From NCBI GenBank assembly GCA_963779755.1, contig CAVZZO010000001.1:320001-384000 (forward strand): a DNA stretch of 64,000 nucleotides, given 5' to 3'. Shown here piece after piece: positions 50,656-63,448 of this stretch. This DNA is from an uncultured Gemmatimonadales bacterium. Its GTDB lineage: Bacteria; Gemmatimonadota; Gemmatimonadetes; Gemmatimonadales; GWC2-71-9. The notes below the pieces were generated by a model that saw only the letters and a list, made by a program, of their open reading frames with translations, was not told the origin of the DNA and did no database searches. The position numbers were made by a program, and so were the translations under genes. The number at the start of each line of letters is the position of its first letter. Position 1 is the first letter of the stretch.

Positions 50656-52980
50656 TCAGGCACTTCTCAATCTCAACGAGTTGGACACCACGCTGACGCT
50701 GCTCACCGCCATGGCGGCGGCGGCCATGGCCGGCGAGAGCAGCAGGCCGAGCGCGGGATAGAGGATGCCCGCCGCCACCGGGATGCCGACCACGTTGTAG
50801 ATGAAGGCCCAGAAGAGGTTCTGCCGGATGACCCGCAGAGTCTGCCGGGCCAGCCGGATGGCCCGTTCCACCCCGCGCAGGTCGCCCTGCATCAGGGTGA
50901 TGGCGCCGGTTTCCATGGCGACGTCGGTTCCGGTGCCCATGGCAATACCGACATCGGCCTGGGCCAGCGCCGGGGCGTCGTTGATCCCGTCGCCCACCAT
51001 GGCCACGACGAGGCCCGACTCCTGGAGCCGTTTCACTTCGCGCAACTTGTCCTGCGGCAGCACTTCTGCGATGACCCGATCGGCTCCGATCTCGCGTCCG
51101 ACCGCCTGGCCAGTGGCCCCGCTGTCGCCGGTGAGGAGAATGACCTGGAGCCCGAGCGCGTGCATCCGCTCCACCGCCTCCCGGCTGGTGGGCTTTATGG
51201 GGTCGGCCACGCCGAGAATGCCGATCAGCTTCCCCGCGCGGGCGACATAGACCGGGGTGCTGGCGCTGGCCGCCAGCCGGTCGGTATCGGCGGCGGTGGC
51301 AGGATCCACGCCGTGTTCCCGCATGAGGGCGGCGTTGCCAACCATGATTACGTCGCCGCCCACCTTACCGCCGACACCCTGCCCGGGATAGAGCGTGAAG
51401 TCGCGGGCGGGAGGGAGGCTGATCCCGTCATGCTCGGCGGCGCGGACGATCGCTTCGGCCAGGGGGTGTTCGCTCAGCCGGTCCACCGCGGCGGCGGCGG
51501 CGAGCAACTCGGGCGCGGCAATCCCGTACGGCAGCACGCTGGTCACGGCCGGCTTGCCCTGGGTGACCGTCCCGGTCTTGTCGAGCACGACGACGTCTAT
51601 CTGAGTCGTGCGCTCCAGTACCTCGCCGCCCTTGATGAGCACGCCCAGCTCCGCGCCGCGGCCGGTCGAAACCATGACGGCCGTCGGCACCGCCAGCCCC
51701 ATGGCGCAGGGGCAGGCGATGATGAGCACGGTGACGGCGGCGATCAGGGCATGCAGGTAGTTCGGCCCCGGGCCGAAGTCGTACCAGATGACGAAGGTGG
51801 CGATCGCCAGGGACATCACGACGGGCACGAACACGGCGGCGATGCGGTCGGCCAGCCGCTGGATGGGAGCCTTGGAGCCCTGGGCCTCCTGCACCAGCTG
51901 CACGATGCGTGACAGCATGGTGTCGGCCCCCACGCGGGCGGCCTGGAAGCGGAAGGCCCCGTTGCCGTTGAGCGTGCCGCCGACCACCTGTGCGCCCGGC
52001 TCCTTGCGCACCGGCATGGGCTCGCCGGTGAGCATGGATTCGTCCACGCTGCTGGTGCCTTCGGTCACCACGCCGTCCACCGGAATCCGCTCCCCCGGCC
52101 GTACCAGGATGAGATCGCCCACCCGGAGCGTTTCGACGGCGACGTCGATCTCCCGGCCATCGCGCACTACGCGGGCCGTGGTGGGCCGGAGGCCGATCAG
52201 CCGCCGGATGGCCCCAGACGTCCGCCCCTTGGCGGTGGCCTCCAGCAGGTTGCCCAGCAGAATGAGCGCGATGATCCAGACCACGGCCTCGTAGTACACC
52301 TGGGGGGTCACGCCGTGGGCCGCGAACCAGCCTGCCCCCAGCGTCATCGCCGCGCTGAAGAGAAACGCCGCGCCGGTGCCGACCGCGATGAGGGTGTTCA
52401 TGTCGGCGCTGTGGTGGCGGAACGCCGCCCAGGCCCGGACGTAGAAATGCCGGCCCGCCCAGAACACTACCGGCAGCGTGACGCCCAGCAGCACCAGCCG
52501 CAGCACTTCTGGGGGGAGTGCAAAGACGGCGGGGAAGACGCCCTCGAGCCAGCGGCCGACCGGCATCATGAGCCGCATCAGGGGATCGGCCGTGCCGCCC
52601 TCGGACTGCATGAGCGGTATGGACAGCAGCATGGTCAGCACCGCCGCCACCGCGCTCACGATGAGCTTGCGGCGGAGGAGGGTGATCTCGCGCGCGCGTT
52701 CCTCGTCCTGTTCGGCGACCCGCGCTTCCGGTGTGCTCGCTCCGGCCGGCACGGAGGATTCGTAGCCGGTATCCCGGATGGCGCCGACCAGCTGCTCGGG
52801 GGTTACGACCGCGGGGTCGTAACTGACCGTCGCCGAGCCGGTCATCAGGTTGACGTTGGCGGAAACGACGCCGGAGGACTTCTCCAGGGCACGCTGCACC
52901 CGGGCGCTGCAGGCGGCGCAGGTCATGCCGCCGACGGGCAGGGTGCAGGTCTCGGGGGTGGGCGTCAGCGTGGAGCTCAT
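50656..52980 (-). CDS. copA: Cu(I)-translocating P1B-1 ATPase CopA
   Basis: GMTCAAC metal-binding domain, [28 protein letters not shown]. Confidence 0.97.
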
Positions 52981-52987
52981 CAGGGGA

Positions 52988-53107
52988 CTAATGGTGAGGC
53001 GTGAGGGGTGAGGCGTGGTTCTGCCGATGGGTTCCCAGGAAATACCAGAGAACCCAGGTGATCAGGGCGACCCCGGCCAGCGTGACGATAATGCGGTCCA
53101 GGCTCAT
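52988..53107 (-). CDS. 39-aa single-TM small protein between copZ and copA (absent from the ORF track)
   Basis: [42 protein letters not shown] overlaps the copZ TGA; stop 7 nt before the copA start. Confidence 0.72.
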
Positions 53108-53319
53108 GACTGGCTCAGGGGGAGGGCGTTGTAGCCGACTTCATTCAGGGAGTTGCAGATGGCTTCGATGCTGGTCTGTGACTCGTCGAAGGCTACTTCC
53201 GCCTGGCCCAGCTTGACGCTCTTCGTCTGGACTCCGGGCATCGCGGCCAAGGTCTTGTTGACGGTATTGAGGCAGTGCCCGCAGCTCATGCCCTGGATAT
53301 GAAGCACCAGTTCCTTCAT
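53104..53319 (-). CDS. copZ: Copper chaperone CopZ
   Basis: IQGMSCGHC HMA motif, 71 aa. Confidence 0.93.
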   Translation of the reverse strand: MKELVLHIQGMSCGHCLNTVNKTLAAMPGVQTKSVKLGQAEVAFDESQTSIEAICNSLNEVGYNALPLSQS

Positions 53320-53379
53320 GGAGTTACCCTCGGCGTTGGGGTGACGGGGCCCGTATCAGTCCCGGGCCTCACGCCCTGA

Positions 53380-53408
53380 ATCGTAAATAGGGGTGGGGGG
53401 TATGTCAA
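53380..53408 (-). promoter_or_regulatory. cop operon promoter with a CsoR-type operator in the spacer
   Basis: Minus strand TTGACA-17 nt-TACGAT; spacer carries ATACCCCCCACCCCTAT (ATA..C-tract..TAT). Confidence 0.82.
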
Positions 53409-53415
53409 TTCCTCT

Positions 53416-53443
53416 AAAAAGGGGGCGGCCCGAGGCCGCCCCC
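53416..53443 (-). terminator. Intrinsic terminator of the metal-uptake operon
   Basis: GGGGGCGGCC-TCG-GGCCGCCCCC followed by TTTTT. Confidence 0.88.
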
Positions 53444-53457
53444 CGGTTCGAGCCGGG

Positions 53458-54303
53458 TCAATCCGCGGCGGCGAGGCTCGCGGCGTCCGGCGCGCGGCTG
53501 CTCAGCCGCCGGCCGATATAGGCCAGCAGCAGCAGCAGGCCGAACATGCAGACGATGACCGGCCCGGTGGGGAGATCGTACCGGAAGGAGAAAGCCAGCC
53601 CGCCCGCCGAGGCGACCAGGCCGGTGAGCCAGCTGAGCGCGACCAGGACCCGCTGGCTGCGGCTGAATTGGAACGCCACGGCGGCCGGCACCACCAGGAA
53701 GGAGAACACCAGGAGCACGCCGGCGATGGGGACGGAGAAGGTGATCACGATGCCGAAGGAGAGATAGAAGAGGAAGTCCCACCAGCGGATGCGCCACCCC
53801 AGGCCCAGGGCTTTCTCCGGCTCGAAGGAGATGGTGAGGAAGCGGCGGCGCAGGGCAAAATGGAACAGCCCCAGCGCGGCGTAAATGATGGCCAAACGGA
53901 TGATGGTGGGCCAGGTGACCCAGAGGAGGCTGCCGACCAGGATGTCCTTGATGGCCTCGCTGCCGCGCGGTGCCTTGTCGGCGACGAGTATGGCGGCGGC
54001 GGAGGCCACGACATAGACGATGCCGATGATGGCCTCCTGCGGCACCCGGCCCCGTTCGTGGGTGCGGGTCAGGCTGAAGATGAGTGCGCCGATGGAGGTA
54101 AAGGCCAGGGCGTAGATGAAGGCGGTGGTGGAATCGGGCATGGCGCCGGCCAGCACCGCCACCGTCGAGCCCAGCGCCGCCATCTGCGCCAGGGAGAGAT
54201 CCACGAAGATCACCTCCCGGGCAATGATGTGGAGGCCCAGATAGGCGTGGATCGCCACGATCACCATGCAGGCCACCAGGGGCGGCAGGATCAGGTCGAG
54301 CAT
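53458..54303 (-). CDS. Metal ABC transporter permease (ZnuB/MntB-like)
   Basis: FVDLSLAQMAALG, EAIIGIVY, LVGSLL, GVLLVFSFLVVPA, DLPTGP. Confidence 0.9.
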   Translation of the reverse strand: MLDLILPPLVACMVIVAIHAYLGLHIIAREVIFVDLSLAQMAALGSTVAVLAGAMPDSTTAFIYALAFTSIGALIFSLTRTHERGRVPQEAIIGIVYVVASAAAILVADKAPRGSEAIKDILVGSLLWVTWPTIIRLAIIYAALGLFHFALRRRFLTISFEPEKALGLGWRIRWWDFLFYLSFGIVITFSVPIAGVLLVFSFLVVPAAVAFQFSRSQRVLVALSWLTGLVASAGGLAFSFRYDLPTGPVIVCMFGLLLLLAYIGRRLSSRAPDAASLAAAD

Positions 54304-54333
54304 CGAGGGTCCTTTCGGGGAGCGGGCGGCCGG

Positions 54334-55380
54334 CTACTTGAATACGGCGGTGAGGCCGTTGACCCAGGTATTGACCAGATCGAAATAGGTGTCGACGCCG
54401 GGCGCGCCCTGGGTGTTCTCGGGGACGATGACGGCCGTGGCACCGGTCTTCTGCGCCACCTGCTCGACGGCGCTCCGCGGGTAGTAGTTGGCGGAGAACA
54501 GCGCGGGAATATGGCGCGCCTGCATCAGGCTGATCACCTCCCGGACGTGCCTCGGCGTGGGCGGGATGCCCGGTTTCGGCTCGACGAAGGCGATGCAGGG
54601 AATGCCGAACCGGTCGCTGAAGTACACCCATTCCCGGTGGTAGCAGACCATTTCCTTCCCCCGCAGGATTTCCGTCTGCTTCAGCCAGCCGCCCAGCCGG
54701 TCGCTCAGCGGCCTGCCCTGGTACTGCTTGCCGCCCACGAAATCGAGAAACTTGTCGCTTCGCAGCAGGTCGAGCGTGGTCTCCGGGGTCAGCAGCTGCA
54801 CCAGATCGGAGCCGACCGTGGCCTCCAGAACCCGGCGCTCAAAATCCTTTTCACGCTGGGTGAAGAACCCGGCGTCCGCCGGTGCGATCCGCTGCAGGCC
54901 GGTGAGGATGTTCCGGGCGATGATGATGCCGTTGACCGGGTCGGTGTGAATGTGCGGGTTGCCCTCGGCGTGGATATCCCCCTGCGAACGATCGGTGGAC
55001 GTGGGGATCTCCAGCAGGTGGATGCCGGTGTAGGCCGTCACATACCCGGGGCCGCCCTCGATGACCTTGCGGTTGTTGGCCCGGTCGAGCAGCGGCGGGA
55101 CCCAGAGCTCAAGATCGAGCCCGGTGGTGACGAACAGGTCTGCGTTGCGCAGAATGGCAACGAAACTCGGCTTGGGCTGAACGAAATGCGGATCCTCGTC
55201 TCCCTGGGCGATGGCGGTGACCGTGCCGCGATCGCCCACGATCTCCCGGGCAATGGCGGCGTAGGTGGTGAGGCTGGTGACGACCCGGAGCGGGGCTTTT
55301 CTGGAGTGGGCAGAGGGGGCGGAGTCGGCGCTCATCAGCCCGATCGTCGTCGCGGCCGCCAGCAATGTCTGAAGTAGCAT
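54334..55380 (-). CDS. Metal ABC substrate-binding protein (ZnuA/TroA family)
   Basis: Signal peptide, DPHF, GLDLE.W, GNPHIHTDP, YH, EPKPGIPPTPRH. Confidence 0.93.
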   Translation of the reverse strand: MLLQTLLAAATTIGLMSADSAPSAHSRKAPLRVVTSLTTYAAIAREIVGDRGTVTAIAQGDEDPHFVQPKPSFVAILRNADLFVTTGLDLELWVPPLLDRANNRKVIEGGPGYVTAYTGIHLLEIPTSTDRSQGDIHAEGNPHIHTDPVNGIIIARNILTGLQRIAPADAGFFTQREKDFERRVLEATVGSDLVQLLTPETTLDLLRSDKFLDFVGGKQYQGRPLSDRLGGWLKQTEILRGKEMVCYHREWVYFSDRFGIPCIAFVEPKPGIPPTPRHVREVISLMQARHIPALFSANYYPRSAVEQVAQKTGATAVIVPENTQGAPGVDTYFDLVNTWVNGLTAVFK

Positions 55381-55411: not shown

Positions 55412-56806
55412 TCAGTAGGTCTCGTGCTTGTGGGGACCCATGGCCCAGACGACCTGGAGCGTCAGGGTGTTGTCCGATGAGCCGTCCTGCATGCGGTGGT
55501 GCTGCCCCTGCAGGCGGAGGTAGACGAATTCGCTTTCCCACCAGGTAATGACCGGGGTGAGCATCCATTCGTCGGCATAGGGGCCGCGGGGTGCCTCGAC
55601 GTAATCGTACCGGGCGCCCAGGACCCAGCGCTGCCCGGCCCTGGCCTGCACGTCGGCGAACATGCCATAGCGGCTGCTGCGCGCCCCCGCCTCGCGGGCG
55701 TGCAGGCGGTACCCCTCCAGGCGCAGCGTCACATCACGCCGCGTTCCCGCCTCGGGGGGGCGCCAGGTGAACCGGAAGTCGGCGCCGAGAATGTTGCTGG
55801 TGAGGCTGCTGTCGCGGTTGCTGCCGACGGCGCCGGTGAAGCCCAGCTGGGCGTAGCTGCTGCGGGAGAGTTGCCAGAAGTTCTGCAGCCGAGCGAGTCC
55901 CACGGGCTGTGCGCTGCCGGCCAGGAAGGGGTCGCTGGCGGTGGTGGTACCCTGCAGCCACAACTCGTGCGCACCGCCGGCCAGGGACAGTGGCAGCAGG
56001 CTGTAGACCGAGATGCCGACCCCGGCCAGGCCCTCCGAGCCGAAGAACCGCTGATACACCAGCGGGTATTCGGTCTCCGGCAGAGCGTGCAGATGCCAGC
56101 GGTTGAGGTCTCCCACCTCCTGGCGGAACTTGCCGACGTCCAGCCGCAGCTTGCCGGGAAGGCCGGACCAGTAGATGTAGCCTTCCTCCACCCCGACTTC
56201 GTCCTGCTCGAAGGTGAGGAAGACCTTGGTGTTGGAATAGGGATCGAGAGAAGATTGAAAGGCCAGCTCGAACTCCCGCGCGTCGAAGTTGTTCCGCTGC
56301 ACCCCGCGGTCTTTGGCCGAGATGCGGATATCGCCGGTGGCGCTGATCTCCGGATTGAAGCTGTTGAGATTGCGCTGCTTGCTCACGAACTGAGTGCCGC
56401 GGGCCCCCGCATCGCCGCGGGCGGCCGGCTGCGCCGCTGCATCCCCGGCCGCCCCGGCGGCGGCGGCGCGCAGGGCCGCCAGGTCATCCGCCCCGCCGGT
56501 GTCGGCGGCAAGCGAGGGCGCGGCGGGAGCACAACGGGCTTGTTGCAGCCGGGCAACCCGGTCGCGCAGGCGGCGCAGCGCCGAGCTCATCGAGTCGGTG
56601 GCGGCATCGCCGGTGGGGCCCGGCAGCTTGAGCTGCAGAGGACCCCGGGGACAGCTGCCGGCGTCGAGTGAATCGAGCCGGGCCTGGAGCTGCTCTACGC
56701 CGTGCCGGAGGGAGTCGAGTCCGGCGGCGGGTTGCTGGGCCTGCAGCGCGGGTGCGGCGCCACTCAGCAGTGCCGCCAGCGCCAGAACGCCTGATGATGT
56801 ACGCAT
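55412..56806 (-). CDS. Outer-membrane beta-barrel/porin with N-terminal coiled coil, putative metal uptake
   Basis: Signal peptide, NPEIS..GD, amphipathic strands, His-containing C-terminus MGPHKHETY; GGGAG RBS. Confidence 0.78.
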   Translation of the reverse strand: MRTSSGVLALAALLSGAAPALQAQQPAAGLDSLRHGVEQLQARLDSLDAGSCPRGPLQLKLPGPTGDAATDSMSSALRRLRDRVARLQQARCAPAAPSLAADTGGADDLAALRAAAAGAAGDAAAQPAARGDAGARGTQFVSKQRNLNSFNPEISATGDIRISAKDRGVQRNNFDAREFELAFQSSLDPYSNTKVFLTFEQDEVGVEEGYIYWSGLPGKLRLDVGKFRQEVGDLNRWHLHALPETEYPLVYQRFFGSEGLAGVGISVYSLLPLSLAGGAHELWLQGTTTASDPFLAGSAQPVGLARLQNFWQLSRSSYAQLGFTGAVGSNRDSSLTSNILGADFRFTWRPPEAGTRRDVTLRLEGYRLHAREAGARSSRYGMFADVQARAGQRWVLGARYDYVEAPRGPYADEWMLTPVITWWESEFVYLRLQGQHHRMQDGSSDNTLTLQVVWAMGPHKHETY

Positions 56807-56946
56807 GTTGTCTCCCAGCCTGTGCGGAGTCCCCCGCAAGCGTCTTTGCGGAGCTCCCGCGCTTCGTCATCCCGGCGGTTCCTGCCGGTGCATTTCCACC
56901 GCCGCGCCTCTCTGGCGACGGGGGTGGAGGGGCTGCAGATGTCGAG

Positions 56947-57297
56947 TCAGACCAGGAAGGAGGGAGGGGCTCGGGAGAGGGTACTGGTATGGATCGTGAC
57001 CCCCGACCACCAGATGATCTCCGGGGAAGTGATCGGGAGGATACGCGTTTCGGGGAGGACGATGGCCCCGGAGGCCACCTGCCAGACGTGACGGGGGACG
57101 GACCACGCCAGGCCGAGGAGACAGCGCTCGGCGTGGCAGCCGCCCTCGTCGGACGATTCGAAGTGCGGACCGACGGCCTGTTCGGCGTGGCCCCGATGGT
57201 GGGCGAAGGCGTCGAACACCGGCACGCCCAGACTGCTGCCGACGAAGGCCAGCAGGAGGAGCAGGGCGAGGGCGCGGCGAGCCGAGCGGAAGCGCAT
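56947..57297 (-). CDS. Putative metal-sensing leader/arrest peptide 1 (116 aa, C-terminal SRAPP)
   Basis: Signal/TM segment, AHHRGH..PH..GGCHAERCLLG, LSRAPPSFLV-stop; paralogue of 63110-63448. Confidence 0.8.
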   Translation of the reverse strand: MRFRSARRALALLLLLAFVGSSLGVPVFDAFAHHRGHAEQAVGPHFESSDEGGCHAERCLLGLAWSVPRHVWQVASGAIVLPETRILPITSPEIIWWSGVTIHTSTLSRAPPSFLV

Positions 57298-57380
57298 GGT
57301 CAAGCGCAAGATAGCCGGGCGGCCGGGGCCGGAACACCGGGACGGCATACCCGTACGACGGTGGTCCGGCCCCACGGGAT

Positions 57381-60300
57381 TCAGACCTCCAGCCGGTCGC
57401 CGTCGCGGGCGACCACGGCATAGAGCGCGGGCATCAGCAGCACACTGATGAAGAGCCGGGAGAAGAGACCGCCGACGATCACCAGGGCAAAGGGCTTCTG
57501 CGAGTCCGATCCCACGCCGGTAGAGAGCGCCGCCGGCAGCAGGCCGAAAGCCGCCACCAGTGCCGTCATCATGATGGGCCGGAGCCGGAGCACGGCGGCG
57601 GTGCGGGTGGCTTCGGCGATACTGGAACCGGCCCGGCGCAGCTCGTTGGCGTAGGAGATGTAGACCACCGCGGTCTGCACCGAGACGCCGAAGAGGGCGA
57701 GGAAGCCGATCCCCGAGGACACCGAGAAGGGAGTCCCGGTCACCGCCAGTGCCACCAGGCCGCCGATGGGGGCGGAGAGCACGACGCCGGCCACGGTAAT
57801 GAAGGGAAACTTGAAATTGCTGTAGAGCGCAAACAACAAGAGGAAGATGATGAACAGGGTCAGCGGCACGATGATGCGGAGCTGGTGGCGTGAGCTGGTG
57901 TATTCCTGGTACTCGCCACCCCAGACTACCCGATACCCGGCGGGCAGATGGACGGTGGAGGTCACCTGTCGCTGGGCGTCCTGCACCGCGCCGGCCAGGT
58001 CGCGGCCTTCGACCGAGTACTGTACCCCGATGAACCGGGCGTTATCCTGGCGGTAGATGAACGAGGCTCCGTTGGAGAGCGCAATGGTCGCCAGCTCCTT
58101 GAGCGGGACCTGCGCCCCGCCCGGCGTGGCCACGAGAATGTTGCCGATCTCCTCAGGCGTCTGCCGGAAGCGCGGCTGGAGGCGGACCACCAGGTCGAAG
58201 GTCCGCTCTCCCTGCACCACGCCGGTAGCCGACACCCCGCCCACCGCCGCTTCGATGAGGCCGTTGATGTCATCCACGCCCAGGCCATACCGGGCGATCT
58301 TCGAGCGGTCCACCTGGATCGTCAGGCTGGGCTGGCCCAGCTCCTGGACCAGGGTGACGTGGCGGATGCCGTGCACCCGCTGGAGCACATTGCGGATCTG
58401 CTGCCCCTCGGTCTGCAGCGTGTCGAGGTTGGGACCGAACACCTTGACGTCCAGGGCGCTCTTGAGGCCGGTCTCGGCTTCGTCCACCGCATCCTCGGCG
58501 GGCTGGGTGTAGTTGAAGATGATACCGGGAAATTGCCGCAGCCGCTGATTGATGTCGTCGATCAGCTGGGCCTTGGTGTGGATCTTCCCCTGCCATTCAC
58601 CGTACGGCTTCAGCCCGACGTAGAACTCGGCGTTGAAGAAGCCGGTGGGATCGGTGCCGTCGTCGGGCCGGCCGTGCTCGGATGCGACCACGGTCACCTG
58701 GGGATAGGAGCGGAGAATGGCGCGAATCCGCGGAACGATCTGCGACGATTCTTCGAAGGAAATCGTGTACGGCATGGTGGCGCGAACCCAGAGCGCTCCC
58801 TCATCCAGGTGAGGCATGAACTCCGCGCCGATCAGGGGCAGCAGGAGCAGCGAGAGGGCGAAGATCGCCACCGAGCCGCCGATGGCGGGCCAGCGGTGCG
58901 CCAGGGTCCAGTCGAGCGAGCGTTCGTACGAGCGGCGCAGTGCCTCATAGAACGGGTTCCGCCGCTCCCGCACGCCGTGGCGCAGAATCCAGGAGCAGAG
59001 CACGGGCACCAGGGTCAGGGTGAGCAGCAGCGAGCCGATCAGCGCGAAGATCGTGGTGTCGGCCATGGGGCGGAAGAGCTGGCCCGAGGGACCCTTCAGC
59101 ACGTAGATAGGCAGGAAACCGGCAATGATGACCGCCACGGCATAGAAGATGGGCCGGTCCACCTCGGCGGCGGCCGCCGCGATGACCTCACGCAGGCGAT
59201 ACTGGGTGCCGTACCTGAGGGCGAGCTGGCGGTGGATGTTTTCCACCATCACTACCGCGCCGTCCACCAGGATGCCGAAGTCTATCGCGCCGATGGAAAG
59301 CAGGTTGGCCGGAATGTGCCGCAGGTCCAGGCAGATGAAGGCGAAGAGCAGGGCGATGGGTATGGTCACCGCCACGATCAATCCGCTCCGGATGTCATAG
59401 AGGAAAAGGATCAGCACGGCGATGACCAGGCTGATCCCCCGCAGCAGGTTGTCTTCCACCGTGCGGGTGGTGAGTGCGATCAGGTCGCTGCGGTCGTAGA
59501 ACGGATGGATCTTCACATCCTTCGGCAGAATGTGCTCGTTCAGTTCGCGGGTCTTCGCCTCCACCTGCTTGAGCACGGTCTGGGCCTGCTCGCCTTTCCG
59601 GAGCAGGATGACGCCTTCGACGGCATCGTTCTGCGCGTTGTAGCCGAACTGCCCCAGGCGCGGGGCATGGCCGATCACCACGCTGCCGATGTCCTTGACC
59701 AGCACGGGCGTGCCGTTGTGGACCGCGAGCACGGTGTTGCCGATGTCGTCCAGGGTGTTGAGCCGCCCCAGGCCGCGCACGTAGTAGAACTGGCCGCCCT
59801 CGGAGTAGAACCCGCCGCCGGCGTTGCTGTTGCCCTTGCCCAGGGCATCCACGACGTCGCTCACCGCCAGCCCGGCGGCCGCCAGGCGGGTCGGGTCGAT
59901 CTGGACCTGGTACTGCATGGTCTCGCCGCCCAGCGGGGAATCGTCGGCCACACCGGGGACCGACCGGTACTGCCGCACGATGACCCAGTCGTTCAGCACC
60001 TTGAGGTCCATCGCCGTCCGGTCGGGACTCTGCAGCACGTAGCGGTAGACCAGGCCCGAGGGAGAGAAGAGCGGCGATACGCCGGGGGCGACACCATCGG
60101 GCAGCTCCGCATCGGGCAGGCGTTCGAAGACCTGTTCCCGGGCGAAGTAGTTGTCGGTGCCGTCCTCGAAGGTGAGCCGGATGTTGGAGAGGCCGTAGAG
60201 CGAGATGGACCGGATGACCCGCAGGTGGGGCAGCCCGTTCATCTCGACTTCAAGCGGCACGGTGATGAGGCGTTCCACCTCCTCCGCGGCGTGGCCCGGC

Positions 60301-60497
60301 CACTGGGTGGTGATCTCCACCATCGGGGGAGAGAGATCGGGATAGGCGTCCACCGGCAGCCGGGTGAAGGACCAGATGCCCCCGCCGATCAGAATGAGCG
60401 CGCAGAGCACGACCAGGAACCGCTGATTCAGGCTGGTCCCGACGATCCGGTGAATGAACGAGGTGGCCGGCGGCGTCCCGGCGGGGCTCCCGGTCAC
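57381..60497 (-). CDS. czcA: CzcA-type heavy-metal RND efflux transporter
   Basis: LPVDAYPD, EEVERLITVPLE, TM4 GAIDFGILVDGAVVMVEN, RLRPIMMTA. Confidence 0.93.
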   Translation of the reverse strand: MTGSPAGTPPATSFIHRIVGTSLNQRFLVVLCALILIGGGIWSFTRLPVDAYPDLSPPMVEITTQWPGHAAEEVERLITVPLEVEMNGLPHLRVIRSISLYGLSNIRLTFEDGTDNYFAREQVFERLPDAELPDGVAPGVSPLFSPSGLVYRYVLQSPDRTAMDLKVLNDWVIVRQYRSVPGVADDSPLGGETMQYQVQIDPTRLAAAGLAVSDVVDALGKGNSNAGGGFYSEGGQFYYVRGLGRLNTLDDIGNTVLAVHNGTPVLVKDIGSVVIGHAPRLGQFGYNAQNDAVEGVILLRKGEQAQTVLKQVEAKTRELNEHILPKDVKIHPFYDRSDLIALTTRTVEDNLLRGISLVIAVLILFLYDIRSGLIVAVTIPIALLFAFICLDLRHIPANLLSIGAIDFGILVDGAVVMVENIHRQLALRYGTQYRLREVIAAAAAEVDRPIFYAVAVIIAGFLPIYVLKGPSGQLFRPMADTTIFALIGSLLLTLTLVPVLCSWILRHGVRERRNPFYEALRRSYERSLDWTLAHRWPAIGGSVAIFALSLLLLPLIGAEFMPHLDEGALWVRATMPYTISFEESSQIVPRIRAILRSYPQVTVVASEHGRPDDGTDPTGFFNAEFYVGLKPYGEWQGKIHTKAQLIDDINQRLRQFPGIIFNYTQPAEDAVDEAETGLKSALDVKVFGPNLDTLQTEGQQIRNVLQRVHGIRHVTLVQELGQPSLTIQVDRSKIARYGLGVDDINGLIEAAVGGVSATGVVQGERTFDLVVRLQPRFRQTPEEIGNILVATPGGAQVPLKELATIALSNGASFIYRQDNARFIGVQYSVEGRDLAGAVQDAQRQVTSTVHLPAGYRVVWGGEYQEYTSSRHQLRIIVPLTLFIIFLLLFALYSNFKFPFITVAGVVLSAPIGGLVALAVTGTPFSVSSGIGFLALFGVSVQTAVVYISYANELRRAGSSIAEATRTAAVLRLRPIMMTALVAAFGLLPAALSTGVGSDSQKPFALVIVGGLFSRLFISVLLMPALYAVVARDGDRLEV

Positions 60498-61627
60498 TGG
60501 TTCTCCGCGAACCGCAGAAACAGTCCGCCCTCGGCCACGATGCGCTCGCCCGGCGCCAGGCCGGAGGTGATTTCGTAGCTGTCATCCACGTGCGAACCGA
60601 GGGTGATCTGGCGGCGCTCGAAGCCTTTTCCTGAATCGGCCACAAACAGGAACGGCAGGTTATTCTCGTCGCGCTGCACCGCCGAGGCGGGCACCAGAAT
60701 GCCCCGGCGGCCGTGACGCGAGTAGATGGTGACACGGACGAACATATCGCGCTTGAGGACATCGCCAGGGTTGGGCGTCAGGATCCGGACAGAGGTCGCC
60801 CGGGTGTCCGGGTCTACCAGCGAGGCGACGTAGGTGACGCGCCCGGGGAAGACGCGGTTGTCGTCGGTGGGGCTGATGCTGGCCGAGTCGCCTTCGGTCA
60901 CGTCGGGCAGGTCGGATTCGAAGACGTTGGCCATGACCCAGACGGTGCCCAGGTCGGCAATGGTGAAGCAGGGTGTGGCGCCGCTCTCCAGCAGCTGGCC
61001 CGGGGTGATGAGCTTCTCCACCACCACCCCGGCGATGGGCGCGCGGATCACGGCCTGGGCGGCCTCGACCGCACGTCCCTGGCGGATGTCTTCGATGGTG
61101 GCGGAGTCGACGCCGAGCGAGCGCAGCTGCTCCCGTGCGGCATCCCGGTCGGCGGCGGCCGAGGCGGCGTCCGTCTGGGCCTGTTCCAGATCCCGCCGCG
61201 CCAAGGCGTCGGTGTCGAAGAGTTTCTGGTCAAGGTCGGCGATGTGCTGGGCGTTGTGCGCGGCCACCACCGCCTTGCGGTAGTCGGCGATGGCAGTGGC
61301 AAAGTCAGGGGACGCGACCACCGCCAGGGCCTGGCCCGCCGCCACGTGGGCGCCCGGCTGGACCAGGATACGTACCACCGGGCCCGAGATGGGCGCGAGT
61401 ACCTGCGTGCTGCGGTCGCCGTTGAAGGCCACGGTGCCGGTGACCGTGACGGACGGCTGAAAGGCCACGGGGGCAACCGGCGTGATCCGGAGCTGGTGGC
61501 GCTGGGCCGGAGTGAGAACGAACTCCGAATCGGCCGCGCCGTCGCCGCCGGCCGGCTCGGCACGGTGGCAGGCGCCCGCCAGCAGCAGGCAAGCGAGGGC
61601 GGCAAGAGCCCCGATCCTAGTGGTCAT
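60494..61627 (-). CDS. RND periplasmic adaptor (CzcB-like lipoprotein)
   Basis: Lipobox-like LAGAC, APISG, IRAPIAG, IADLGTVWV, GLAPGERIV. Confidence 0.92.
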   Translation of the reverse strand: MTTRIGALAALACLLLAGACHRAEPAGGDGAADSEFVLTPAQRHQLRITPVAPVAFQPSVTVTGTVAFNGDRSTQVLAPISGPVVRILVQPGAHVAAGQALAVVASPDFATAIADYRKAVVAAHNAQHIADLDQKLFDTDALARRDLEQAQTDAASAAADRDAAREQLRSLGVDSATIEDIRQGRAVEAAQAVIRAPIAGVVVEKLITPGQLLESGATPCFTIADLGTVWVMANVFESDLPDVTEGDSASISPTDDNRVFPGRVTYVASLVDPDTRATSVRILTPNPGDVLKRDMFVRVTIYSRHGRRGILVPASAVQRDENNLPFLFVADSGKGFERRQITLGSHVDDSYEITSGLAPGERIVAEGGLFLRFAENQ

Positions 61628-62939
61628 GCTGTTCTCCAGACGAGACGGTATCGAGCGGAGCGCCAATCGCGCGCTCCAGGTCGGCGCGGGCATCGTTGGC
61701 GGCGCCCAGGGCTTCGGCATACTGGCTTTTGGCGTCGAGCATGGTGCGACGGGCATCCAGCACCTCCAGGCTGGAGGACCCTCCCAGCCCGTAACTCTGG
61801 AGCGCGATCTGATAGGCACGGGTGGCTTCCGGCAGCAGCTCGTCACGCAGGTACACTGCCTGAGCGAGCGCGGTGGCGGCCGTGGCATAGGTGGCGCGGA
61901 CATCCTGCTCCACCTGGGCTTCGAGGTCGCGGTAGGTGGCCGCCAGCTCCTGCTCGTGGTGTTTCGATTCGGCAACCTCTCCGCCGATATGATTCCAGAA
62001 GAAGAGCGGGAGGGTGAACCCGATCGACGTGGTGTAGCTGTTGGGGGCTCCGCTCACCACGTTCTTTTCGACGCTGACACCCAGGTCGGGAACCCAGAAC
62101 TCCTTGGCCAGCGAGGTGGCCGCGGCGGCCCCGGAGCGGACGCGGGCCAGCCCCTGCAACTCGGGACGGTCGCGCAGGGCAATGCCGACCAGCAGGGACA
62201 GCTCCGGCAGGCTGTCGGGGACGCTCAGGGTATCGGTGGTGGCGATGCCGCCACCTACCGTGCGGCCGAGGAGACGATTGAGGTTGGCCCGGGCGGTGGC
62301 GAGGTCACGCTGGTTGGCCAGCAGGTTGTTGGCGGCCTGGGCGACATCTACCCGCGCCTTGATGACGTCGAGGCGCGGCACGGTGCCTCCCTCGAAGCGC
62401 GCCTCGGTCTTCTTCAGAAAATCCTCCGCCAGCGCCTTGCCCTCCTCCAGATCCGACTGGTGCTGCAGCGCGACCAGAATGGCGTCATAGGTCTGCGCCG
62501 TCGCCGAGGTCATCTGCTGCACCAGCTGGACGTAGGCGAATTCGGTGCTGCCCACCTCCGCCCGGCCGATCCGGCCCAGGAGCAGGAACTTGGAGGGAAA
62601 GGGCAGGGTCAATCCGACGCTGACGTCGCTGCCGGTCCGGGTGCCGGGCTGGAAGGGCTTGGCCAGCCCGGCGTAGTCGCCCGCGATCTGGGGATCGGGA
62701 AAGGCGGTGAGCTGGACCTTCCGGGCCCGGGCCTGGGCGATCTGCTGCCGCGCTGCCTCGAGCGCCGGGTTGTGGGCCAGCACGCTGTCGATCGCCTGCT
62801 GCCGGGTCAGGGCCAGGGCGCCCGGCGCCCCGCTCTGGGCGCGGGCGGACCTGCCCACCACCACACTGCAGCCGAGTACGATCGCCAGGCCGCGCAGTCG
62901 TCTGAAGCCGGGGATCAGGTATCCCCGTTGGTGTCTCAT
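61617..62939 (-). CDS. TolC-family outer-membrane factor (CzcC-like)
   Basis: HNPAL, RFEGG, RPEL, LPLFFWN, SSLEVLDARR; start placed at MRHQ after AGGGGA. Confidence 0.9.
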   Translation of the reverse strand: MRHQRGYLIPGFRRLRGLAIVLGCSVVVGRSARAQSGAPGALALTRQQAIDSVLAHNPALEAARQQIAQARARKVQLTAFPDPQIAGDYAGLAKPFQPGTRTGSDVSVGLTLPFPSKFLLLGRIGRAEVGSTEFAYVQLVQQMTSATAQTYDAILVALQHQSDLEEGKALAEDFLKKTEARFEGGTVPRLDVIKARVDVAQAANNLLANQRDLATARANLNRLLGRTVGGGIATTDTLSVPDSLPELSLLVGIALRDRPELQGLARVRSGAAAATSLAKEFWVPDLGVSVEKNVVSGAPNSYTTSIGFTLPLFFWNHIGGEVAESKHHEQELAATYRDLEAQVEQDVRATYATAATALAQAVYLRDELLPEATRAYQIALQSYGLGGSSSLEVLDARRTMLDAKSQYAEALGAANDARADLERAIGAPLDTVSSGEQHDH

Positions 62940-63109
62940 GCCATCCCCTGTGTCAGGATGCTCCGGGTGAAGTCGCAGCATCCGTCGCGGCCGCGCCACC
63001 GCCCCCGCTAGGCCGGGAGCTGCACGACGGCGTGCCGGATGTACACCCTGCGGTCAACGTCCTGGGGGACGCCTGCCGCGTACCTCATGTCAGTTTGTGA
63101 TGGGAAACT

Positions 63110-63448
63110 TCAGACGGCGGGAGGGGCCCGGCTCTGCGTGGTGCGGATGGCGGCGGCCCGGGGGGGCAGCGGCGCCGGCTCCGCCTGGGGACGGGAAGCA
63201 AGCTCGGCCAGCGACTGGATGCCGGAGACGGACGCCCCCACCACCTGCGGCTGCATGGTGACCACACCGAGAACACAGTGCTCGGCGTGGTTGTGGCATC
63301 CTCCGGCGGGATCGTAGTGCGGCCGAAGCGGCTGCTGGTGGTCGGAGCCAAGATGATGGGCCAGCAGGTCAAATCCGGGCAGGCCGATGCCGCTCCCCAC
63401 AAACGCGGTGAGGAGAAGGAGGGCGGCCAACCTCTGGAAGCGACGCAT
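63110..63448 (-). CDS. Putative metal-sensing leader/arrest peptide 2 (112 aa, C-terminal SRAPP)
   Basis: Signal/TM segment, AHHLGSDH..PHY..GGCHNHAEHCVLG, QSRAPPAV-stop; paralogue of 56947-57297. Confidence 0.8.
   Translation of the reverse strand: MRRFQRLAALLLLTAFVGSGIGLPGFDLLAHHLGSDHQQPLRPHYDPAGGCHNHAEHCVLGVVTMQPQVVGASVSGIQSLAELASRPQAEPAPLPPRAAAIRTTQSRAPPAV

Follow-up and report, generated by a model that had tools for sequence, protein, structure and literature searches.

Leader 1, a small open reading frame (ORF) ahead of a porin-like gene, probably encodes a divergent exported metal-sensing arrest peptide of the DUF2946 (CruR/CutF) kind, and stalling of its ribosome on a C-terminal RAPP motif would unmask the porin gene's Shine-Dalgarno (SD) sequence. 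It lies in the window, the whole 64,000-nucleotide stretch of DNA that was analysed. In the proposed mechanism the N-terminus would send the nascent chain to export, a putative Asp/His/His/Cys site would precede the RAPP motif by a constant 47–49 residues, and on RAPP the ribosome would stall, its P site occupied by the first proline (Pro1) and its A site by the second (Pro2). The codons of the stall site and a short tail would be able to base-pair with the SD region of the gene that follows, which at this locus encodes a 16-strand porin. A parked ribosome would keep this anti-SD arm in its mRNA channel, so that the downstream ribosome-binding site (RBS) would open more easily, and the helix would re-form once the ribosome terminated and departed. 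The duration of the stall would be tuned by binding of metal to the nascent chain, and the controlled step would be translation rather than Rho-dependent termination of transcription.

Leader 1 and its family

The leader 1 ORF (56947..57297, minus strand) encodes 116 amino acids plus the stop, starting MRFRSARRALALLLLLAFVGSSLG and ending TLSRAPPSFLV. Read directly, codons 1–24 (57226..57297, minus strand) specify a basic N-terminus followed by a hydrophobic run, ALALLLLLAFVGSSLG, of a signal-peptide- or signal-anchor-like character; by eye, the pattern was kept across the alignment. The putative metal site (57121..57213, minus strand) consists of D29 (57213-57211), H34 (57198-57196), H55 (57135-57133) and C59 (57123-57121). 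C59 was invariant among the 82 aligned sequences, and D29, H34 and H55 were each at least 90% conserved. The conserved Cys/His motif, putatively metal-binding, has the variant form HxxxC, unlike the CXXC of CruR and the CXXXC of CutF; still other clusters of the class combine Cys and His. The RAPP codons, CGA GCC CCU CCC (56962..56973, minus strand), stand four residues ahead of the stop. The in vitro stall of CruR, as described in the available parts of PMC12992588, has Pro1 at the P site and Pro2 at the A site, and from that toeprint a ribosome stalled on leader 1 would be expected to place codon 56967-56965 (Pro1) in its P site and codon 56964-56962 (Pro2) in its A site.

A word-index homologue search with leader 1 returned one outside relative only, P0002, and the family was for that reason gathered by profile searches. 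Metagenome and genome contig searches with P0001 as the sole query gave no confirmed relative. Of 91 family ORFs, 87 carried R[AG]PP (84 RAPP, 3 RGPP) at a distance of 1–7 residues from the stop, the distance being four residues in 51, which bears out the earlier placing of leader 1 among arrest-motif leaders. Judged from its sequence, leader 1 shares with the known class a RAPP or proline-rich motif a few residues from the C-terminus. The motif of 149 library representatives was RAPP in 140, RGPP in 4, RPPP in 2, RSPP in 2 and absent in 1; the sole representative without it was a 92-aa sequence. HxxxC occurred in 146 of 148 library representatives with a Cys-to-Arg gap of 47–49 residues, exactly 48 in 118 of the 146. 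The stretch separating the metal site from RAPP was hypervariable in sequence and constant in length, both in the 82-sequence alignment and in the library. The leaders have the fixed spacing from metal motif to arrest motif that marks the DUF2946/CruR/CutF class, which in DUF2946 is 45 residues, within 1–2, according to the parts of PMC9426467 that were available.

Leader 1 itself had no match in Pfam, even at E 10. PF11162 was matched weakly by 26 of the 82 aligned relatives (best E 2e-4), and a language-model look-alike search of leader 1 gave, at rank 17, a cluster with 14% DUF2946 members. Because of these weak matches and the look-alike cluster, the sequence data point to leader 1 as a distant branch of DUF2946, not a member by curated threshold.

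The genes downstream of 78 loci were TonB-receptor-like (TBDR) in 43, OEP in 16 and of the porin family in 19. Median intergenic length was 75–101 nt across the family; at the leader 1 locus the gap was 140 nt. By annotation, the leaders stand upstream of metal-homeostasis genes across a long intergenic gap.

Downstream porin, leader 2 and neighbourhood

The gene downstream of leader 1 (55412..56806, minus strand) has a signal peptide, N-terminal helices and a 16-strand beta-barrel of porin fold; no Pfam or NCBIfam family was found for it. The best of five AF2 models had a mean pLDDT of 76.8, and Foldseek with this model retrieved chitoporin, OprP, OmpM1 and Omp32 (E 1e-10 to 1e-8).

A paralogous leader, leader 2 (63110..63448, minus strand; 45% identity to leader 1), ends TQSRAPPAV and is followed by OEP (61617-62999), MFP (60494-61975) and RND (57381-60497) genes. 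For leader 2, no pairing with its own downstream SD was predicted. The window also contains RND, MFP, OEP, ZnuA, ABC-3, HMA and P-type ATPase genes.

Helices at the leader 1 locus

The initial annotation had proposed that the L-S-R-A codons of leader 1 (CUC UCC CGA GCC) pair with the SD region of the porin gene over 10 bp with a single bulged G. Reading of the sequence agreed. The anti-SD arm is UCUCCCGAGCC (56968..56978, minus strand), and the SD arm is CAGGCUGGGAGA (56811..56822, minus strand), which holds the porin SD, GGGAGA, 4 nt ahead of the AUG at 56806. Within the latter, GGCUGGGAGA (56820-56811, minus strand) is followed by CAAC and the AUG; its reverse complement is UCUCCCAGCC, and it pairs with UCUCCCGAGCC as described. 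The duplex was calculated at −17.7 kcal/mol, and that of the porin SD with the 16S tail at −7.3 kcal/mol.

RNAfold of 56790-57000 placed the helix 56978-56968/56820-56811 in both the MFE structure (−81.6 kcal/mol) and the centroid, together with all three intergenic hairpins that had been named as drawing the two arms together (56895-56928, 56872-56888 and 56824-56860, minus strand). In a 287-nt fold the SD was paired with the 56978-56968 arm at a probability of 0.97. Locally, then, the helix was favoured as claimed.

The z-score of the 211-nt fold was −1.17. Dinucleotide shuffles of the leader arm gave duplexes of −16.0 +/- 2.5 kcal/mol against −17.7 for the native one, and 23% were equal or better. 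Foreign partners paired equally well with the arms of this locus in 27 of 78 cases for SD windows and in 30 of 78 for leaders. Taken singly, the helix at this locus is no better than chance; support for it comes from comparing 79 related loci.

A second anti-SD arm, UUCCUGGUCUG (56948..56958, minus strand), spans the F-L-V-stop codons, the position favoured by most relatives. It pairs with CAGGCUGGGAG (56822-56812) over 11 bp, four of them G.U, at −15.9 kcal/mol. A scan of 56600-57600 for promoters and terminators gave 0 sites of either kind, which says little because this phylum may have promoters of another form.

The local helix did not hold once the fold took in the entire leader ORF. In folds of 371 or 561 nt the SD was paired with 57121-57111 at a probability of about 1.0 and with 56978-56968 at 0.0. 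The competing arm, UGUCUCCUCGGCCUGGCGUGG (57102..57124, minus strand; codons C59-W65), forms 18 bp with 56828-56807 at −31.6 kcal/mol, an energy matched by 0.4% of shuffled SD windows. Shielding of the SD at this locus is thus seen in the local MFE structure, yet full-length folds favour the long-range helix, whose upstream arm would be left uncovered by a ribosome at RAPP. The long-range helix had no counterpart in the family, with −23.7 kcal/mol for own SD and −23.4 for foreign SD, and in the region of its arm (offsets −180 to −150) z was about 0 across the 79 loci. The arm is situated in translated RNA.

Complementarity of arrest-site codons to the downstream SD

The comparison set comprised 79 related loci, whose downstream start codons were picked by an automatic rule and may in some cases be wrong. 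The 30-nt window beginning at the R codon of the arrest motif paired with its own SD at −17.19 kcal/mol and with permuted partners at −14.45 (z −9.0, 79 loci). The window beginning 15 nt before the R codon gave z −4.6, and 18 other offsets from −225 to +60 all gave |z| below 2.3 over the same loci. With near-duplicates removed, z was −7.6 for 63 loci. By class of downstream gene, z was −7.7 for TBDR (n=43), −3.9 for porin (n=19) and −2.1 for OEP (n=16). The SD was paired with the footprint window at a probability above 0.5 in 38 of the 79 loci; when partners of the SD were ranked by raw energy, a noisy measure, the arrest-site window came first in no more than 12 of the 79.

Coverage by pairing was highest at +1 to +22 from the R codon. 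The anti-SD of most relatives consists of the P-P codons and the tail, and the placing of the anti-SD in the L-S-R-A codons does not hold for most of the family.

Covariation among relatives had been named as a test of the helix, and was found at a single position. In a fixed register, 50% of loci had a pair between the base following CCUCC and the one 5' of GGAG, compared with 32% after permutation (p 0.006), the Watson-Crick pairs at this first position being C-G in 7, G-C in 5 and A-U in 4. Positions +2 to +5 after CCUCC were not significant (p 0.24-0.50), and the weakness of the fixed-register signal beyond +1 is attributed to shifts of the helix register among loci.

Codon choice at the arrest site was strongly skewed. 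CCU was the first Pro codon in 49% of loci against a background of 7% (binomial p 9e-25), whereas CCC was used in 4% against 38%. The Ala codon of RAPP was GCU in 33% against 6%, and the R, A and Pro1 codons avoided G endings. The choices at these three codons produce CUCC, which is complementary to GGAG. Covariation, together with the bias among synonymous codons, is comparative evidence suggesting that masking of the SD by arrest-site codons is under selection.

Modelled ribosome at RAPP

A ribosome was modelled as a folding constraint. It lowered the probability of a paired SD across the family only from 0.81 to 0.74, with a loss above 0.3 in 3 of 79 loci. This measure is insensitive because the GC-rich RNA always finds another partner, and opening energy was taken as the readout instead. 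The cost of opening the RBS over the 79 loci was 12.5 kcal/mol in the free RNA and 10.55 with a ribosome at RAPP, and it stayed at 12.5 with control ribosomes 30 or 45 nt upstream (Wilcoxon p about 1e-8). About 10.5 kcal/mol of opening cost remained with the ribosome in place. At the leader 1 locus the cost fell from 9.5 to 6.3 kcal/mol with the stall and to 6.2 and 7.4 with the control positions, and the modelled drop there is not specific to RAPP. The suggestion that a ribosome at RAPP frees the RBS is thus supported in the model for the family, where controls were flat, and lacks RAPP specificity at the locus for which it was made. In the model, shielding of the SD of the CutF type would extend across the family, as judged from the arrest-site-specific complementarity and the drop of 2.0 kcal/mol.

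Comparison with known arrest peptides

In SecM-secA of E. coli and MifM-yidC2 of B. subtilis, a signal for export or insertion at the N-terminus goes with an arrest motif at the C-terminus, and stalling of the ribosome opens a helix that masks the downstream SD. Their release comes from the pulling force of the monitored machinery, whereas leader 1 has a metal-binding-type motif, a metal-homeostasis cluster around it and outer-membrane channel targets. In peptides that monitor Sec or YidC (SecM, MifM, VemP, ApdA/ApdP) the regulated gene belongs to that machinery; here the gene downstream has a porin fold, and its counterparts in relatives encode TonB receptors, OEPs or porins. SecM and MifM, to which the initial annotation likened the system, therefore serve as analogies only, since the downstream gene is no Sec or YidC component.

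Unmasking of a shielded SD in dependence on a stall has been shown experimentally for CutF (PMC9973294; bioRxiv 10.1101/2025.02.05.636593). As described in the available parts of these sources, CutF of Rhodobacter capsulatus (cutFOG operon, DUF2946) is small and exported, has a Sec signal, and carries a metal motif based on Cys and, at its C-terminus, a proline-rich stall site; leader 1 would resemble it through its signal-peptide-like start, putative metal site and RAPP, and the switch logic of CutF matches that inferred for leader 1. CutF carries a PPP stall motif and a CxxxC metal motif, in contrast to RAPP and HxxxC plus D/H in the leader family. The cutF-cutO stem-loop is placed between the genes, whereas the 5' arm of leader 1 lies inside the codons of the arrest motif and tail. 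The target of CutF is a periplasmic multicopper oxidase and that of leader 1 an outer-membrane channel. Copper induces stalling in CutF, a polarity opposite to that of CruR.

CruR (Bp2923 of Bordetella pertussis; DUF2946, PF11162) needs its RAPP motif to express the downstream TonB receptor, according to the available parts of PMC9426467. It has a signal peptide, which the start of leader 1 resembles, and shares with leader 1 a conserved distance from metal motif to RAPP (45 intervening residues, compared with 47–49). RAPP stands 3 residues from the C-terminus in CruR and 4 in leader 1; the GC-rich long intergenic region measures 162 bp and 140, respectively, and each operon opens with an outer-membrane transporter. 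The polarity proposed in the initial annotation, in which absence of metal means arrest and the downstream gene is on, is that of CruR (PMC9426467). CruR differs in working through Rho-dependent transcription termination, and masking of the SD is not discussed in the parts of PMC9426467 that were available. It also has CXXC and a RAPP written in frequent codons, where the leader family has HxxxC and strongly biased RAPP codons, and it belongs to PF11162, of which leader 1 has no match.

A survey (EMBO J 2025; PMC12992588) describes, in the parts available, small proteins that combine a signal sequence with RAPP or RGPP at the C-terminus and that are encoded upstream of TonB-dependent receptors across Gram-negative bacteria. 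The 43 TBDR-linked loci found here are of the same class as these uORFs, which are linked to TonB receptors and copper genes. The main text of PMC12992588 makes no mention of Shine-Dalgarno sequences, stem-loops, secondary structure or Gemmatimonads, and in the parts available porin or OEP targets and RNA pairing are not described. No mention of Gemmatimonads was found in the supplement files searched.

Alternative explanations

Control of the CruR type, in which arrest permits transcription of the porin operon and release terminates it, is unlikely but is the strongest of the alternatives. The RAPP-stalled ribosome would prevent Rho from loading on RNA that is rich in C and poor in G, or would bar its way to the polymerase, and the SD helix would be incidental or an added layer. 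Rho control has been demonstrated for CruR of B. pertussis (PMC9426467, available parts), which, among characterised relatives situated upstream of an outer-membrane transporter, is the closest. From −15 to +15 around the arrest site the family has 52-59% C and 16-23% G, the first 30 nt of the leader 1 intergenic region hold 17 C and 4 G, the 140-nt intergenic region is long, and a rut site, too, would fit with the avoidance of wobble G in the R, A and Pro1 codons. The zone in which C exceeds G is, however, merely about 45-60 nt and lies mostly within the footprint of the stalled ribosome. A rut site leaves unexplained why complementarity is greater for own than for foreign SDs, and why CCU is preferred to CCC at Pro1 when both codons are free of G.

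Compositional chance, with C-rich Ser/Pro/Leu codons meeting a G-rich SD, is a less probable account still. Some different structure, for instance the 18-bp helix formed with 57124-57102, would then mask the SD, and translation of the leader would matter only through ordinary unwinding by ribosomes, or not at all. Shuffled and foreign partners do equal the energy of the local helix, the long-range helix (−31.6 kcal/mol) dominates full-length folds, predicted pairing of the SD stays at about 0.8 under any constraint in these GC-rich RNAs, and the pairing is missing in leader 2. Against these stand a family signal that is specific to the arrest site and includes the porin class, of which this locus is a member (z −3.9), and a long-range helix that is peculiar to this locus (−23.7 own against −23.4 foreign kcal/mol; z about 0) and whose upstream arm sits in RNA that is translated. 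Very improbable is the reading that the small protein matures in the periplasm to serve as a metal chaperone or an accessory of the channel, with RAPP acting in the protein itself, for binding or degradation. A periplasmic metal binder would fit with conservation of the D/H/H/C residues and with the signal-peptide-like start, and CutF was initially conjectured to be a chaperone (PMC9426467, discussion, as available); yet a hypervariable stretch of fixed length better suits a spacer or ruler than a folded domain. RAPP and RGPP are, moreover, the strongest known arrest variants and the RAPP of CruR arrests in vitro (PMC12992588, available parts), and RNA-level signals would not be expected from a purely protein-level motif.

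Significance

Unmasking of the porin SD by an arrest at RAPP, the preferred reading, reveals no new principle. The leader 1 system is probably a new divergent branch of the known copper-sensing CruR/CutF switch and not a new kind of system; stall-controlled SD unmasking (CutF) and RAPP uORFs upstream of TonB receptors were already known. What may be particular to it, as a tentative proposal to which we give slightly less than even chances, is that RAPP is dual-coded, probably in Gemmatimonadota. The peptide would stall the ribosome, and the same codons with the tail, held C/U-rich by synonymous selection (CCU at Pro1), would be the anti-SD of the next gene. One compact Asp/His/His/Cys-sensor module would then gate outer-membrane channels of three classes, namely TonB receptors, RND outer-membrane factors and a porin family not named before, often with 2–4 tandem modules in a genome. 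As uptake-type and efflux-type genes stand under the same architecture, either metal polarity is opposite among copies or it is one and the same for all three classes. It may also be that the His-rich site senses some metal different from copper.

The metal-sensing arrest peptides CruR and CutF were characterised only recently, and they differ in mechanism (Rho termination as against SD unmasking) and in polarity. The leader family extends this set by about 585 cluster representatives, unnamed in standard annotation, with arms that are specific and mutable, and it links such sensors to RND outer-membrane factors and to a porin family that has no Pfam or NCBIfam model. Recognition of these leaders would aid the annotation of metal-homeostasis islands in a poorly studied phylum.

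Gene order and the porin-fold protein

The relevant genes of the window were located on the minus strand throughout, with leader 2 first and a P-type ATPase last. Leader 2 is a small ORF (63110-63448) ending ...TQSRAPPAV; it is 45% identical to leader 1 and heads a set of efflux genes encoding an OEP (61617-62999), an MFP (60494-61975) and an RND pump (57381-60497). Leader 1 (56947-57297; 116 aa, ending ...TLSRAPPSFLV), the candidate arrest-peptide ORF, is followed by a porin-fold ORF of 464 aa (55412-56806, AUG at 56806). Directly after the porin, in the region 52980-55380, are genes for a ZnuA-family binding protein (54334-55380) and an ABC-3 permease (53458-54303), followed by an HMA protein (53104-53319) and the P-type ATPase (50656-52980), whose domains are HMA and E1-E2 ATPase; uptake-type and export-type genes stand in one minus-strand string. 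Between the ZnuA/ABC-3 and the HMA/P-type ATPase genes, the same strand offers no candidate for an ABC ATPase subunit among ORFs of 110 aa or more.

Among 78 proteins encoded downstream of related leaders, 43 carried CarboxypepD_reg and/or Plug domains (TonB-receptor-like, TBDR), 16 were OEP, and 19 without a Pfam family aligned to the 464-aa protein of the window at 31-61% identity. No Pfam or NCBIfam model was found for this last family. An AlphaFold2 model of the 55412-56806 product, built from the alignment of the 19, had a mean pLDDT of 76.8 (the other four models scored 46-60) and a pTM of 0.62 and contained N-terminal helices and 16 beta-strands. The top PDB matches by Foldseek were chitoporin, OprP, OmpM1 and Omp32 (E 1e-10 to 1e-8, target-normalised TM 0.57-0.65), and the predicted structure therefore supports the name "porin" at the level of fold. 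Members of the family have a signal peptide, N-terminal helices with invariant C52 and C92, then the 16-strand barrel, and all 19 loci found (the window's own, L005, L011, L019, L020, L038 and 13 more) lie behind a RAPP leader.

The leader family

Leader 1 had no match in Pfam or NCBIfam, and a word-index search returned a single relative. A profile made from leader 1, leader 2 and this relative matched 74 of 401 sampled genomes of the phylum and 65 of 165 genomes of the window's own family, and 92 family loci were collected. Copies often numbered 2-4 per genome at 3-6 kb spacing, an arrangement that points to tandem units of leader plus channel, of which the window would hold two. Such copies on one contig and strand were seen, for example, at G108:C108 (74686/78465/82357), G045:C3 (272088/275830) and G146:C54 (59181/62924; genome:contig).

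The stalling motif R[AG]PP, with the stop 1-7 residues further on, was present in 87 of 91 family ORFs (84 RAPP, 3 RGPP; four trailing residues in 51). The other four were L030, truncated where its contig ends, L044, which has RSPP, and L068 and L084, which lack a terminal motif. L044 ends ...LPRSPPA, and L068 and L084 extend beyond the expected end; decay, a frameshift or a fusion might explain each of these three. In an alignment of 82 sequences M1, C59, R109, P111 and P112 were invariant, D29, H34, H55 and A110 were conserved at 90% or above, and the C59-R109 interval was hypervariable.

Searching 1.84 billion representatives with the profile gave 585 proteins at E<=1e-3 (356 at E<=1e-10). 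The best 149 of the 585 carried RAPP (140), RGPP (4), RPPP (2), RSPP (2) or, for one 92-aa sequence, none of these; HxxxC was present in 146 of 148 best representatives, with a Cys-Arg gap of 47-49 residues (exactly 48 in 118). PF11162 (DUF2946) matched 26 of the 82 members weakly (best E 2e-4). In a language-model look-alike search, the one source of the Gemmatimonadota label used here for the subfamily, the listing included clusters commonest in Gemmatimonadota and one cluster with 14% DUF2946 members. From these sequence comparisons leader 1 is read as a probable distant branch of the DUF2946 class.

Pairing at the leader 1-porin junction

The initial annotation had proposed that the L-S-R-A codons of leader 1 pair with the porin SD region across three hairpins, and its observations were reproduced. 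On the minus strand UCUCCCGAGCC (56978-56968) spans the L-S-R-A codons, GGCUGGGAGA (56820-56811) contains the SD GGGAGA 4 nt upstream of the AUG, and the duplex between them has 10 bp and a single bulged G. RNAfold of 56790-57000 recovered this helix in the MFE (-81.6 kcal/mol) and centroid structures, together with all three hairpins; the z of the whole fold against shuffles was only -1.17. The SD paired with the L-S-R-A arm at a probability of 0.97 in a 287-nt context. A second local register joins the tail codons UUCCUGGUCUG (56958-56948) to CAGGCUGGGAG (56822-56812) by 11 bp, including 4 G.U (-15.9 kcal/mol). Taken alone, the L-S-R-A/SD helix is unexceptional at this locus: its duplex energy was -17.7 vs -16.0 +/- 2.5 for dinucleotide shuffles, 23% of which equalled it, and when partners from 78 other loci were substituted, 27 of the SD windows and 30 of the leader windows paired as well.

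In folds extended over the entire leader ORF (371 or 561 nt) the partner of the SD became 57124-57102 (P ~1.0; 0.0 for the L-S-R-A arm). This 18-bp helix (57124-57102 x 56828-56807, minus strand, -31.6 kcal/mol) joins codons C59-W65, which encode the conserved residues C-L-L-G-L-A-W, to the SD/start region of the porin. A ribosome stalled at RAPP would leave its upstream arm uncovered, and this is the main result against a simple two-state picture at leader 1. Just 0.4% of shuffled SD windows matched its energy; among 78 foreign partners of each kind, 4 SDs and no leader ORF did so. The helix has no counterpart in related loci. It may lock the porin RBS while the leader is untranslated, or it may have arisen by chance.

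Complementarity of the arrest site across relatives

The comparison was restricted to loci in which R[AG]PP was terminal and an SD-bearing start lay no more than 230 nt downstream. This left 79; 12 were dropped because no start met the rule (L006, L022, L024, L064, L079), the motif was absent or the ORF open (L030, L084), the motif was non-terminal (L044, L068), or the gap exceeded 230 nt (L049, L062, L087). Successive 30-nt windows at offsets of -225 to +60 from the R codon were scored by duplex energy, both against the SD window (-20 to +3) of the same locus and against permuted partners.

At offset 0 (RAPP codons, tail and stop) the energy was -17.19 for own vs -14.45 for permuted partners (z -9.0). 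Offset -15 gave z -4.6, and the remaining 18 offsets had |z| below 2.3. With near-duplicates removed (63 loci) z was -7.6, and 0 of 20,000 permutations were as low. Each downstream class showed the signal on its own, with z values of -7.7 (TBDR), -3.9 (porin) and -2.1 (OEP). Paired bases were densest in two stretches, +1 to +22 counting from the R codon (A-P-P codons and tail) and -16 to -4 counting from the start, which places the anti-SD of most relatives just 3' of L-S-R-A. The proposal of an anti-SD in the stall-site codons is thus supported family-wide and specifically for the arrest site, but with A-P-P and tail, not L-S-R-A, as the usual arm. Long near-perfect helices were found in many loci (e.g. 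L091, L040, L032, L046, L055); uninterrupted helices of at least 8 bp were more frequent in native than in cross pairs (32% vs 13%), as were those of at least 10 bp (6 of 79 native pairs vs 2%). For leader 2 no pairing of the stall-site codons with its own downstream SD was predicted (P ~0; duplex -16.6 vs -17.1 for shuffles).

Covariation, suggested in the initial annotation as a check, gave more modest evidence in a fixed register. In the 34 loci that combine CCUCC at the Pro-Pro codons with a GGAG, the base after CCUCC could pair with the one preceding GGAG in 50% vs 32% permuted (p 0.006; C-G 7, G-C 5, A-U 4), but positions +2 to +5 were non-significant. At two loci upstream of OEP (L008, L027) the SD lies in a tight hairpin, CCCUCCC...GGGAGGG, immediately before the start codon; in some members the masking arm may thus be intergenic, in the way reported for cutF-cutO.

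Synonymous codon usage at RAPP was biased. Pro1 of RAPP was CCU 49%, CCA 27%, CCC 4% and CCG 20%, against 7%, 6%, 38% and 49% among Pro codons of the downstream genes (n=1798; binomial p 9e-25). The Ala codon was GCU in 33% (background 6%) and GCG in 4% (39%), and the Arg codon CGG in 6% (39%). The zone flanking the arrest site is C-rich and G-poor, and Rho may also act there. CCU followed by CCN yields CUCC, the complement of GGAG, and the equally G-free CCC, which would not, was avoided. We infer that a role in RNA pairing is favoured over a pure rut-site role.

Modelled ribosome at RAPP

A stalled ribosome was modelled by keeping 30 nt around the P site unpaired, and the energy needed to open the RBS (-15 to +4) was calculated. 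Over the 79 loci the mean cost fell from 12.5 to 10.55 kcal/mol with the RAPP footprint, whereas control footprints 30 or 45 nt upstream left it unchanged (Wilcoxon p ~1e-8). Drops above 3 kcal/mol were seen in 23 of 79 loci vs 5-6 of 79 with controls. The footprint effect expected from the initial annotation was therefore RAPP-specific across the family, but at leader 1 the control footprints cut the cost as much as the stall did. Over the family as a whole P(SD paired) changed only from 0.81 to 0.74, with a residual opening cost of ~10.5 kcal/mol.

Relation to known arrest peptides

In the published account of CruR, DUF2946 is defined by CXXC and RAPP at conserved spacing, and CruR (Bp2923) lies upstream of the TonB receptor BfrG with a 162-bp intergenic region between; without copper, arrest at RAPP blocks Rho-dependent termination, and copper relieves the arrest (PMC9426467). 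For CutF, copper on a CxxxC motif is described as leading to a stall at the proline-rich C-terminus, and exposure of a shielded SD by the stall has been demonstrated experimentally; CutF-like proteins, whose motifs are Cys, His or mixed, occur mostly upstream of OEP, TonB-like and PCuAC genes (PMC9973294; bioRxiv 10.1101/2025.02.05.636593). A proteome-wide survey reports small signal-sequence RAPP/RGPP proteins upstream of TonB-dependent receptors across Gram-negative bacteria, and in vitro arrest of CruR with Pro1 and Pro2 occupying the P and A sites, respectively (PMC12992588). The principle put forward in the initial annotation had thus already been established for relatives. The texts and part of the supplements covered by our literature search contained no description of the Gemmatimonadota-type leader subfamily, of an anti-SD within arrest codons with covariation and codon bias, or of a porin as an arrest-peptide target.

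The observation of the initial annotation is thus confirmed and its interpretation partly supported. The likeliest reading, which we hold with somewhat better than even confidence, is that a metal-tuned stall at RAPP would expose the downstream RBS by keeping the anti-SD arm within the ribosome; copper would be the metal suggested by the HMA and P-type ATPase genes nearby.
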